DNA of 48,704 bases from Octopus sinensis (Eukaryota): contig NW_021834645.1 of the NCBI RefSeq assembly GCF_006345805.1, positions 1 to 48,704 of the forward strand, read 5' to 3'. This document shows, in pieces, positions 4,183-40,942 of this stretch. Under the pieces are notes generated by a model. That model had not been told where the DNA came from. It ran no database searches and worked only from the letters and a program-made list of their open reading frames with translations. A program made the position numbers and the translations under genes. Position 1 is the stretch's first letter, and each line of letters begins with the position of its first letter.

Positions 4183-4904
4183 TTTATATACACGCTATAC
4201 GTATCGTCGAAGCGAATTTCTCAAATATGCATATGATATAAAACCTTTCATTGTCCATGCTTTACTACCTTACCAATTTTTCATTCTATTTCCTATGTTC
4301 CTATCTCACATTCTGCGTTGAAATTCACACACACACACACACACACAAACACACTAGCACTTATATAAAACACGTATGTATAAGTAGCAGCGTGTGGGGG
4401 TACATATAACCATTCTAGTTTTCTAGTTTATTACATATTCTCATGAATGAAATTGTATGAATTATATCCGTAAACGAAAAGATAATGCGACATTTTGTGG
4501 TAAAAAAAAAAGAAGAAAAAACTAGCGTTCTTTGAAAACGAGTTAAAAGCGGAAGAATTCCCTAAATATCATTTATCTAAGGACATTACGTTTATTCAAA
4601 ATATTGTAGTGGTGACTGACATTTGTATTGTAGAAGAGGTTAAATACTTGCCGACAGAGATGTGTTTGCTCCTCGACTTTGCAGGACAGTTGGCTAAACA
4701 TCAAGTGAGTCTCTGCTGATCCATAAAATGCTTTAAAACGAACGAAAAAATGAAAAAAACAAACAGATAGAATTTTTAAAAAATGAATGATGAAACGGGA
4801 AAACTGAAAGCTGTAATTAATAGAATGACTGGCTGAAATGGTTTTTACTGTAATTGAGAGTTGACCAATAAACGGTGTACAAAGTGGATAGAGAGTGTTC
4901 GATG

Positions 4905-7284: not shown

Positions 7285-7452
7285 CTATTATGAGATGTAG
7301 TGAAGATTATTTACATTATTTACATTTGACGGATATTTTTCCTCATCTTATCTGTTGTTAACAGAAGGTTTCGGCTGGTATACCCTCCAACCTGCAGCAG
7401 GTATCTTGGGGAAATTTCGAATTTGGATTCTCATTCCTAAGGTATTTTTCGA

Positions 7453-8057: not shown

Positions 8058-8382
8058 TGAAGGCGCGTGGATTAGTGGTTAGGGTATTTGGTTCACGATC
8101 GTAAGGTCGTGGGTTCGATACCCCGGTGGCGCGTTGTGTCCTTGAACAAGACACTTTATTTCACATTGCTCCTGGCCACTTAACTGGCTAAAATTAGCAG
8201 TGCCTGAAATTTAAAGGGCCAGCCTTGTAACATTCTGTGTCGCACTGAATCTCCTTGAGCCCTGCGTCGAGGGTATGCGTGTCTGTGGAGTGGTCAGACA
8301 CTTCCACGTTCATTTCACGAGCAGGCTTTTCCTTTGATCGGTTCAGCTGGAACACTCTTCGTCGTAACCGACGGAGTGCCAG
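8058..8382 (+). mobile_element. tRNA-derived SINE (family C)
   Basis: A box TGGATTAGTGG, B box GGTTCGATACC, followed by GTGTCCTTGAACAAGACACTTTATTTCAC, which is shared with 31261-31490. Confidence 0.8.
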
Positions 8383-28848: not shown

Positions 28849-29579
28849 GTGAGACTCAGTCTCAACGTATGGCTCACCACTTCACCCTACGTGGATACCC
28901 CCTCACCACTATCCACACCGCCCTTGCCAGAGCACGTCCGTGGACCGTGTATCTGCTCTCTCTCCCCGAACCCGCCCTGTAGTCTCCCGCCTCCCTTTCC
29001 CCTCACTTACCACCCCACGACCCTACGTCTCCAACGCACCATTCTTCGAGCTTCCGTCGTCTCCGTCCGACCCGTCCACTTCACCCTCTTCCCTAACCGA
29101 CCCCTCCCCTCTTTCAAACGAGCCCACAACCTTCGAGACCTTTTGGTCCATAGCTCCTTCCCTGACCCTACCTCCCAACCCGGCTCGTTCCCCTGCTCCC
29201 GCCCACGTTGCCGCGCACTTGCCCTTACCTCTCCAACACCACCCGCCTCACTAGCACCCACCATCGACCCTATCCCATCATCCACTCCTTCACCTGCACC
29301 TCCAGCAATATTATCTATTGCATCTCTTGCTCTCTCTGCAATTCCTTGTACATCGGACAAACGGGACGCCGCTTGGCTGACCGTTCGCGAACACCTTCGT
29401 GACATCCACCTTGCGAACGACACACCGGTCTCACGCCATTTCCTTCCGCTCCACCGTCACTCCTTGCAACACCTATCTGTGTTCGGTTTGTCCTTACACA
29501 GAGGCCATCCGGATTCCCGTTTGCGCCGTGAACAGGAATTAATCTTCTCTCTTCGCTCTTATACGCCATTTGGTCTCAA

Positions 29580-30178
29580 CTCTCCCCCCTCCTCTCTAAC
29601 CCCCCTCTCCCCCTCCTCACCTATCCTTTCTCCCCCCGACCCCCACTTCTTCAGTCCTTCATCCTTTCACCCCTACTCCCCTTCCTTCTTCCCTCTTTCT
29701 CCCTCCCTCTTCCTCTTCCCTCTGCTCCCTCACTCCCTCTCTCCCCTTCTCTCTCCCCCTCTCCCTCTTTCCTCCTTCATCCCTCTCCTCCCCTTCCTTC
29801 TCCCCATCCTCTCCTCTTCACCCTCCCCTCCCCCCCTTCTTCCCCCCCCCCTTCTCCCCCCCCTTCTCCCCCCCCCCCTCTCTCCTCACTACACACCACA
29901 TGACTTTACACATCACATCACATATGATGTGCCATACTAATACACACACCAACTAATACATACTAATACGTACTAATACATACTAGTACATACTAATACT
30001 TACACCAACCCTATACATACACACGTCCAGACCCCGCATACGCACTTATACTCTCTCACACACACACACACACACCTATACATACCAATACGTACTAATA
30101 CATACTAATACATACTAATACATACACCAACCCCATACATACGCACGTCCAGACCAATCCCACGCACTGATACTCTCT

Positions 30179-31260: not shown

Positions 31261-31490
31261 GTTCAGCGGTTAGAGCGTCGAGCTTACGATCGTGAGGTTG
31301 TGAGCTCGAATCCCGGACCGGGCTGCGTATTGTGTTCTTGAGCAAGACACTTTATTTCGCGTTGCTCCAGTTCACTCAGCTGTAGAAATGAGTTGTGAGG
31401 TCACTGGTGCCAAGCTGTATCAGTCTTTGCCTGGGAGGGGAACTTTCTAGGTGTAATCCCATGGTCTGTGTCGTGACCGAAGGGGTTCTC
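31261..31490 (+). mobile_element. tRNA-derived SINE related to family C, 5'-clipped
   Basis: B-box-like GCTCGAATCC, GTGTTCTTGAGCAAGACACTTTATTTC; flanking duplication ACTTTTTGACTGT(C/A)GCATT. Confidence 0.8.
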
Positions 31491-31599
31491 AGAACTTTTT
31501 GACTGTAGCATTAGAGAATACAGTTCTATATTTAAGAGATGAGGAATTATGTACATTATTTACATTTGACAGATATTAGTCTTCATCTTGTTTGTTGTT

Positions 31600-31645
31600 A
31601 ACACAACGTTTCGGCTGATTTACCCCCCAGCCTTCATCAGGTGTC
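31600..31645 (-). ncRNA. Minimal type I hammerhead, canonical core
   Basis: GACAC-CTGATGA-A-GGCTG-loop-CAGCC-GAAACGTT^GTGTT; palindromic stem III AACGTT, GUU triplet. Confidence 0.75.
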
Positions 31646-31695
31646 TTGGGGAAATTTCAAACCTGGGTTCTCATTCCTAAGGCATTTTTCGATGC

Positions 31696-31732
<37 letters not shown>

Positions 31733-31734
31733 GA

Positions 31735-31807
31735 AGTCACTACCTGGAATCGAACTCGGAATCTTGGGGTTAGTAGCCCGCACTCTTAACCCCTACGCCA
31801 TATGCCC
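31735..31807 (-). promoter_or_regulatory. tRNA-like Pol III internal promoter (A and B boxes); not a functional tRNA
   Basis: TGGCGTAGGGG (TGGCGTAGTGG in the 7.5 kb copy) and GAGTTCGATTCC; anticodon-arm-like GGG-CTACTAA-CCC; acceptor stem does not pair. Confidence 0.65.
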
Positions 31808-32427
31808 GTGGACAATTATGGAGTTTCTCTTTCCTTCTTTTATTTTCTGTTTCTTTTTCTCCACTCCTCCTCACCATACTATGGAGTGAATTTTAGGGCC
31901 TATAAATCTAACATTTTTCTCTCCTTCCTTAATACCGGTTCCCATATGCTGCTCATATCTGCACTCGGTCTGCTTAGGCGGTTGTTGTGTCCTAGCATAT
32001 GTGCTGCTTCTTTTAGTTTTCGTATTTTCCAGTGGTGTTCTCTGTCTATTATTTTAACTTCATCCCACGGGGGGAAGTGGTCTCCGTTTTTCCATACATG
32101 ATCAGCTATACACGATTTGTCAATATCTCCCCGTGTCACAGCTTTGCAATGTTCGTCTACCCTTATTTTGAGAGGGCGGCATGTTTCGCCTTTGTATAAC
32201 CTACCACAGCTTGCATAGGATGGAGTACACGCAGTCTTTGGTCATATTGTCTTCTGTAGGTGGTTTTACTCGAAGGAGATATTTGTAAAGTGTTGCATTA
32301 CTGTTGAATACTGTCCTGATGTCAATATGCACCGCATATTTTTTGTATCTTTTCGGAGAGGCCTTTCACATAGGGTAGACAGACTGTGGACAGTGTGTTG
32401 GCTTCATCCTGAAGTTGATCTTGCTCC

Positions 32428-36589: not shown

Positions 36590-36901
36590 GGTGGAGGCAC
36601 ATGGCCTAGTGGTTAGAGCAGCGGACTCGCGGTCGAGGGATCACTGGTTTGAATCTCAGACCGGACGATGTGTGTGTTTATGAGCGATACAGCTAAGCTC
36701 CATGCGGCTCCGGCAGATGGTAATGGCGAACTTCTGTTGACTCTTTTGCCACAACTTTCTCTCATTCTTTCCTCCTGCATCTTGCAGCTCACCAGCGACG
36801 GACCGACGTCCAGTCCAGGTGGGGAATCTATACGCCAAGGAAACTGGGAAACCGGCCCTTATGAGCCAGGCATGTCTCGAGAGAGAAGGAACAAACAACA
36901 A
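36590..36901 (+). mobile_element. tRNA-derived SINE (family D)
   Basis: A box TGGCCTAGTGG, B-box-like GGTTTGAATCT, (AAC)n-like tail, ACCGAAC flanking duplication. Confidence 0.75.
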
Positions 36902-39665: not shown

Positions 39666-40942
39666 CGAGGGGCGTTCAATAAGTAATGCCTCTGACCCAC
39701 TTGCAGTTGTTTGATCTAGCTGACATTTTGCATGTGCAATTACCTATATCTCTATAGATTAAGTGGCAAATTACAGCTCTGAACTAATTGCGGTTTCTGA
39801 TTTACAGGTGTTTGAACTGAGTCAAGTGTGAAACGGAGCCTGTTGAGTGTCGAGCAGTGATCCGGTTTTTGTATTTGAAATGACGCACACCACGGGAGAC
39901 TTTTGATGAAATGAAAGTAACTTATTGTGATGATGCCCCATCATATGACCTTGTAAAACGCTGGCATCGTGAATTCAAACATGGTTGGAACTCTGTGGAA
40001 ACAGCTCCCAGATCTGGTCGCCCCCTTCTGCCAATGATGAGGCATCTGTCCGTCAAGTTGAGGCTGCCATTTTGGAAGATCGACGCATAACTATTCGCCA
40101 AATAGCCCATGAGGTCAAGATTAGTACCGGGTCTGTGGAAACTATCATTCATGACCATTTGCATATGCAAAGGTGTCTGCCAGATGGATTCCAGGTTGCT
40201 CACACCTTCCAGAAGCAAGAACACGAGGATGAATTTGAAGATGTGCAAGAAGATGAGTCAAAATTTTTCAAAAGACTGATTACACAGGATGAAACCTGGG
40301 TCCATCACTATGATCCAGAGACCAAAGCCCAGTCAATGCAGTGGAAGCACCGTGACTCACCTCCTCCAAAGAAGGCAAGGGTGCAGCCCTCCGCTGGCAA
40401 GGTCATGATCACAGTCTTCTGGGACCAGGACGGAGTAGTGATGACAGATTTCTTGGCAAAGGGTGCCACAATTACAGGAGTCTATTATGCTTCACTTTTA
40501 AGGAAATTAAGAGAAGCTATCAAAATCAAGAGGCGGGGCAAGATCAGCAAAGGCATCCACCTCCTGCAGGACAACTCTCTGATCCACAACTCGCGTGTCG
40601 CCAGATCAGAAGCACAGGCGTGCGGCTATGAACTCATCTCCCATCCCCCCTACTCTCCTGACCTTGCACCCTCTGATTTTCACCTCTTCCCAGCCATGAA
40701 GTTGTTTTTGAAAGGAAAGCGTTTCCCAGATGATGCAGCCTTGATGTCTGAAGTCACGTCGTGGTTGGAGGACCAAGCTGGGGTCTTCTACAAAAACGGT
40801 CTTCAGAGCTGCATCAAACGATGGGAGAAATGCGTAACTCTGGATGGTTCCTATGTAGAAAAAGACTAATAACTGTGCCAAGTTTCGTTGCTCTACTGCT
40901 ATGGGAAGTGGGTCAGGGACATTACTTATTGAACGCCCCTCG
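39666..40942 (+). mobile_element. Full-length mariner element with TA TSD
   Basis: TA-CGAGGGGCGTTCAATAAGTAATG and CATTACTTATTGAACGCCCCTCG-TA TIRs, 1277 bp. Confidence 0.97.
39833..40869 (+). pseudogene. Mariner DD34D transposase pseudogene
   Basis: TQDETWVHHYDPE, LLQDN, HPPYSPDLAPSDFHLF catalytic motifs in ORF 39985-40869. The N-terminus (EPVECRAVIRFLYLK*...APRSGRP) is in another frame with a stop, and the WVPRxL region is frameshifted. Confidence 0.93.

Follow-up and report, generated by a model that had tools for sequence, protein, structure and literature searches.

A Penelope-like retrotransposon family in an octopus genome whose terminal repeat joins a tRNA-derived head to a minimal hammerhead

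Penelope-like elements (PLEs) are described as forming terminal repeats (pLTRs) by partial tandems, with inverted 5' pieces and an optional tail of 30-40 nt (PMC8557442); for this and the other systems below we drew on parts of the cited texts. In the Poseidon element of Anolis carolinensis (PAc), the ORF overlaps the hammerhead, reverse transcriptase (RT) initiates inside the element, its two start sites lying 111-118 nt into the ORF and defining the tail, and the template needs the ORF up to +172 (Frangieh et al. 2024, PMC11167929). In schistosomes, the repeats Sm-alpha and Sj-alpha consist of a tRNA-derived Pol III head and a type I hammerhead (PMC6765202, PMC2770079, PMC8490949); they are non-coding and often tandem, their hammerhead is canonical, and the sections consulted name no partner. 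The TRIMp3 elements Helenus, Ajax and Cassandra carry a small-RNA-derived Pol III promoter in their terminal repeat, for which a SINE insertion has been proposed, and their autonomous partners are argued to need Pol II (Kojima 2024, PMC10886601). The same source states, for LTR elements, that Pol III promoters are thought to be confined to short non-coding elements. Finally, animal non-LTR retrozymes are hammerhead repeats related to PLE pLTRs and are defined as tandem arrays (Li, Clavereau, Pollet 2026, 10.64898/2026.07.22.740005).

The family described here resembles each of these systems in part. As in PAc, an RT is combined with a C-terminal GIY-YIG, here putative, the ORF start lies over the hammerhead, and two 3'-end sites bound a tail of 30-40 nt. 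Unlike PAc, for which the consulted part of the report describes no tRNA-like head, the present unit has such a head and is free of runs of four T (T4), and its ORF starts before the hammerhead core instead of at stem II. With Sm-alpha and Sj-alpha it shares a short repeat in which a type I hammerhead follows a tRNA head, and since those repeats already join the two, the short cassette alone is not new; here, however, it comprises the pLTR together with the beginning of the ORF in an autonomous PLE, and its copies are dispersed and often fold back. A retrotransposon terminal repeat with a small-RNA-derived Pol III promoter is also what TRIMp3 elements have, but those are non-autonomous LTR elements, whereas the head here stands in the protein-coding element itself. 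The retrozymes are likewise short, pLTR-related hammerhead repeats; unlike them, the present copies are single or inverted, have variants in common with ORF-attached repeats and carry a tRNA head, which the consulted part of the retrozyme report does not mention. No PLE with a Pol III head was found in the literature searched, a coverage that ended short of Repbase, Dfam and Ohshima and Okada 1994, and the consulted parts of a 2026 octopus repeat annotation and of a mollusc SINE paper hold no description of this structure.

The window, that is, the whole stretch of 48,704 nt that was analysed, contains two cassettes on the minus strand (Table 1). A first-pass annotation had described a tRNA-like head with A and B boxes, an (AAT)n run and a minimal hammerhead, and all of these are present where it placed them. 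It had further described the cassette as attached to a PLE ORF, which is correct, except that this ORF is a decayed remnant of the last ~510 nt only, with stops and frameshifts inside; the remnant has no direct Pfam match and aligns to the GIY-YIG-annotated region of protein P0014 (E 4e-7). The reported gap of ~90 bp between stop and head holds for the 31 kb copy but not as a family trait, the family's own spacer accounting for just 27 nt of it. The same cassette without an ORF was indeed found at 7 kb (31809-31546 against 7570-7306, 88.7% identity over 265 nt, E 1.5e-95 by pairwise alignment), and its homology does end 2 nt ahead of the head's first G, but two positions of its hammerhead core are disrupted, as is the part around helix III. 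The 3' end of this copy is near 7306, with a tail that is possibly degraded.

Table 1. Features of the two cassettes, in positions of the whole 48,704-nt window
Feature	Position	Strand	Remarks
Decayed PLE ORF 3' end, 5'-truncated, putative GIY-YIG-type endonuclease region	32410-31900	(-)	94.5% to family consensus
Stop codon of ORF remnant	31902-31900	(-)	
Spacer, stop to head	31899-31810	(-)	Family's 27 nt plus private 63-nt insertion
Private spacer insertion, 63 nt, with 7-nt duplication at its bounds	31879-31817	(-)	
tRNA-derived head	31809-31733	(-)	tRNA likeness and 5'-end pile-up
A box	31800-31790	(-)	Within head
B box	31755-31746	(-)	Within head
(AAT)n run	31732-31696	(-)	Length variable; other repeats often inserted
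pLTR body	31695-31519	(-)	
ATG in pLTR body	31674-31672	(-)	In tandem and full-length copies the first ~52 ORF codons start here
Minimal type I hammerhead, PLE kind	31645-31600	(-)	Predicted to need a dimer
PLE tail between two 3'-end clusters	31552-31519	(-)	Clusters at ~31552-31546 and 31523-31519
Free-standing copy	7570-7287	(-)	Begins 2 nt before head; hammerhead core mutated

Exact cassette motifs number between 1,315 and 6,678 in the 2.7-Gb genome assembly, where control matches number 0, so that they are far above chance. Judged by its sequence, the cassette is the pLTR of a Penelope/Poseidon-type family with RT, a putative GIY-YIG domain and thousands of copies. The 31 kb hammerhead is intact, and the proposal of a minimal hammerhead at this place is borne out by its core and by its layout, which is that reported for PLEs (PMC4209133): a 5-bp helix I, the core CTGATGA, one extra A, a 6-bp helix II and GAAA, with a palindromic ACGT standing where helix III would be. 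The predicted cut would fall between 31605 and 31604. The layout is common to 10/10 relatives compared, in which the helix sequences differ; Rfam called no hammerhead in the cassette.

The derivation of the head from a tRNA is supported by alignment and profile. Over its whole length the head can be aligned to 15 distinct tRNAs encoded in the same genome (40-47 identical columns, z 3.4-7.8), a profile of these tRNAs matches the consensus head with 17.2 bits (E 0.0014), and the A and B boxes have tRNA-like spacing. Arg, Ala and Thr tRNAs score similarly as candidate parents, and neither ARAGORN nor Rfam called the head a tRNA. It is likely that the head serves as an internal Pol III promoter with a start near 31809. 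In the 29 other best-scoring ORF-end loci (40 scored of 2,939 candidates), the head begins 27 nt past the stop in 28, four of them near-identical, and consequently belongs to the PLE; a chance SINE insertion at the window locus is thereby ruled out. When loci were anchored on the head instead, in a sample having few loci in common with the former, 47/60 had the body at most 500 nt away, 9 more had it inverted or farther, and 1 was ORF-attached. The first-pass annotation had itself named, as a finding that would refute its proposal, a common stand-alone SINE of head and (AAT)n, present in a minority of the pLTRs; this was rejected, as only 3/60 head-anchored loci lack any other piece of the element. 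As to the (AAT)n run, one and the same unrelated repeat was found inside it in three loci (L083, L092 and L099), which suggests an element targeting that microsatellite.

Walking upstream yielded a unit of ~2.7 kb, whose consensus ORF is stop-free over 834 codons. RVT_1 scored above the Pfam cut-off in two loci (L067 and L122). The C-terminal region of the ORF gave no direct Pfam match to GIY-YIG; it matches the PF01541 region of P0014 in pairwise comparison (E 4e-7), and by motif likeness it is a putative GIY-YIG domain. In full-length copies the repeat body continues straight into the ORF, which opens at an ATG 34 nt before the hammerhead core and whose frame passes through the hammerhead, a feature absent from the first-pass annotation, as is the unit's lack of Pol III terminators. 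From this ATG the frame stays open for 391 aa in one locus (L107), and length variants of the hammerhead region are multiples of 9 nt in 43/43 copies, as a 9-nt repeat would also give. The closest protein, P0001, is 53% identical and has the same translated-hammerhead N-terminus, being the only one among 88 proteins to do so. Copies lie ~7-9% from the consensus, and no intact ORF was seen among those read. Only two full-length copies reach the head, one beginning there with a fold-back (L115) and the other continuing as a tandem (L116).

The family contains pLTRs from partial tandems, inverted 5' pieces and the tail. Domain order, the PAc-like layout and the absence of a Cys finger from the stretch that separates RT and endonuclease, a feature by which the clades differ, suggest the Penelope/Poseidon type. 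In contigs of a second organism all 30 bins of the full-length reference were covered, and viral contigs yielded 0 relatives. Among the matches to a distant query that were read in the genome, no second Poseidon family was evident; several of the top ones were loci already known. A remnant of a second, C-rich Penelope-like family lies at 28850-29600 (+) and downstream; a hammerhead of its own closes its long 3' UTR, and it looks younger, its top copies being 98% alike in the searched stretch. From its Cys finger we assume it to be Neptune-like.

The ends of the copies were analysed in 90 of the first 100 among the 6,678 exact hammerhead matches, all on one contig (C1), after exclusion of 3 second arms and the last 7; removal of 3 duplicates left 87 for the 5' ends. 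Of these ends, the body accounts for 13, the (AAT)n run for 16 and the interior of the head for 12; 36 lie at -2 to +6 of the head (30 at -2 to +1), and 10 copies go on into the spacer or ORF. Thus 36 of the 46 copies that reach the head start stop within 8 nt, and the plot of 5' boundaries, proposed at the outset as a check, shows a sharp pile-up at the head instead of random scatter. The stop rate per nt at the head start is 0.098, compared with 0.0033 for the interior of the head and 0.0016 for the ORF, a ~60-fold difference between head start and ORF. Counts of exact 20-mers rise from 74 at the junction of tail and ORF through 1,055 at the end of the ORF to 4,203 in the head. The query began at -2; extending it by 8 bases moves many ends to -6, an effect of the palindromic junction.

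This 5-bp palindrome, situated exactly at the pile-up, allows another explanation, in which the 3' UTR of an ordinary Pol II-transcribed PLE carries a tRNA-SINE fossil as a passenger, the pile-up results from stalling or snap-back of RT at the palindrome, and T4 is missing by chance. An adjoining inverted piece is found in 28/36 copies ending at the head, with the palindrome as junction, and the same ends would result if such a hairpin were opened at its loop; moreover, the PLEs that have been studied functionally have pLTR promoters with 5' UTR introns, according to the part of the review consulted (PMC8557442). However, in a sample biased to long copies, 87 5' ends in the ORF are scattered and eight other ORF hairpin matches of at least 5 bp stop just 0-1 of 21-64 passing copies; one of them is more stable than the head-start palindrome and still shows no pile-up. 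We consider this explanation unlikely, also in view of the T-run composition discussed below.

The 3' ends are bimodal, 43 of the 90 falling at body positions 141-152 and 39 at 173-177; position 177 is the query end, and the flanks diverge there except in L162. The two sites are ~30 nt apart, both inside the start of the PLE ORF, and are likely two RT start sites.

The first-pass annotation had proposed that the short copies form an independently mobilised SINE-like family. We compared 68 solo and 30 ORF-attached repeats over ~215 nt, a length of limited resolution. Both classes share one consensus; 0/17 polymorphic sites differ between them at p<0.05 (lowest p 0.087), two linked haplotypes each occur in both, and the solo/attached label changes 26 times on the tree against 25.7 after shuffling. 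No separate SINE lineage was thus seen among the 98 repeats by sites, haplotypes or tree, and the proposal loses its support. Nor is a separate element necessary, since two 3'-end sites within the PLE ORF fit the internal initiation published for PAc, as far as the consulted part describes it (PMC11167929). A PLE-dependent SINE could still be imagined, whose solos make short hammerhead-bearing Pol III RNAs, are mobilised again in trans and form a lineage of their own: solos retain both boxes and outnumber ORF-bearing copies ~4 to 1, any copy could yield short Pol III RNAs, schistosomes have tRNA-headed hammerhead SINEs, and non-autonomous PLE derivatives have been reported (PMC8557442, in part). 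Against it, besides the lack of any variant, haplotype or clade specific to solos, stands the fact that the ends of solos coincide with the RT start sites, while the Anolis template has to extend past these sites, to +172 of the ORF; furthermore, the loci read contain no head-to-tail arrays of solos, the copies being single or head-to-head. We regard such a lineage as rather improbable.

We favour, as reasonably probable, the idea that the tRNA head is the promoter of the PLE and that the solos are by-products of copying the short front end of its own RNA. Pol III would start ~10 nt before the A box and, in tandem and full-length copies, read through the (AAT)n run, the hammerhead and the T4-free ORF, whose frame on the sequence opens 34 nt before the hammerhead core and continues through it. 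By analogy with the Anolis Poseidon, RT would start internally at two sites ~125 and 155 nt into the ORF, which in an RNA started at the head would lie ~260 and 290 nt from the 5' end. At the 5' pLTR, RT would run to the RNA end after ~290 nt and leave a solo that begins at the head and in many cases bears an inverted piece made by fold-back; at the 3' pLTR, it would yield ORF-bearing copies with scattered truncations. The head and (AAT)n run may descend from a simple SINE or retrocopy of tRNA origin, which took the place of the T-rich 3' UTR that relatives have. Copying of the short front end predicts no separate solo lineage, and none was seen.

A long mRNA is, to our knowledge, assumed to require Pol II or host co-transcription in autonomous retrotransposons. 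The consensus unit has zero T4, T runs being the signal at which Pol III stops, in 2,971 nt and is depleted in T-rich 5-mers, which suggests Pol III transcription of the full protein-coding unit. In the ORF, 0 T4 stand against 2.7-2.9 expected (P about 0.03, synonymous shuffles), and 3 interrupted T 5-mers against 8.2 (P 0.013). There is likewise no G4 run (P 0.28), and A4 runs are slightly reduced in number (P 0.05). In 21 single copies, which are not independent of the consensus, there are 16 T4 against 61 expected, matching the simulated neutral decay of a T4-free master. For comparison we used 80 PLE loci from metagenomes, of which 13, mostly short, were dropped by hand and 67, in 49 clusters, were analysed. 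None of the 80 has a tRNA head at its ends. The 67 head-less relatives hold 561 T4 against 485 expected, and the ORF part is T4-free in 1/67, the closest relative (L311), which has no head and 6 T4 in its 3' UTR. The ratio of T-rich 5-mers to expectation is 0.30 in the consensus and 0.23-0.83 (median 0.44) in the copies, against a minimum of 0.59 and a median of 1.11 in the relatives, the consensus depletion being the strongest of the 68 sequences compared. Between stop and hammerhead, 15/16 relatives, some near-duplicates, have 2-7 T4, and the Neptune-like family of the same genome has 5 T4 against 7.2 expected. Another relative (L380) has, past its ORF end at 4644, an A-rich T4-free 3' UTR with a short AAT run and no tRNA head; its ORF holds 11 T4.

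This depletion fits selection for Pol III read-through, although it represents one evolutionary event with a modest P. A passenger fossil in a Pol II-transcribed element gains from the T4 probability of just about 0.03, but has to contend with a T-rich 5-mer depletion topping all 68 sequences and with the disappearance of the usual T-rich 3' UTR. That the family is an autonomous protein-coding retrotransposon whose promoter was swapped for a captured tRNA gene, with the full 2.7 kb transcribed by Pol III and the ORF purged of terminators, we put forward tentatively, as a real possibility. The ~4-fold excess of SINE-like copies might, taken jointly with full-length Pol III transcription, be the footprint of the head start site, a combination in which we place somewhat less than even confidence. 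The head contains a short upstream AUG, and the cap-free translation past it that would be required counts against this. In about 6% of each of three RNA-seq runs of a related organism, the RNA profile mirrors the DNA profile, with both strands equal, and there is no pile of starts at the head or at the cut site, so that the family's own transcription is neither shown nor excluded; the head-to-head junction is found in 321-433 RNA reads per run of the second organism, possibly from few loci.

If true, the pairing of a tRNA promoter with an ORF devoid of terminators would make the PLE transcript a natural Pol III mRNA and raise the question of cap-free translation. The family also provides genome-scale support for internal RT initiation. 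A PLE can spawn thousands of SINE look-alikes, which annotation would misfile, and for Sm-alpha-like elements the same route of origin is now worth asking about.

Other features were observed in the window. The PLE's own spacer/head junction (31814-31803) holds a 5-bp palindrome resembling the fold-back junction of the solos, which may be a fossil of the head-capture event. Other tRNA-like heads lie on the plus strand at 31261-31322, 8074-8124 and 36602-36659 and score higher with the tRNA profile (21-27 bits); the first of them, a short way downstream of the cassette and on the other strand, resembles a SINE with no relation to it. Finally, a mariner-type transposase frame occupies 39973-40869 (+) (Pfam Transposase_1, E 1.7e-24).
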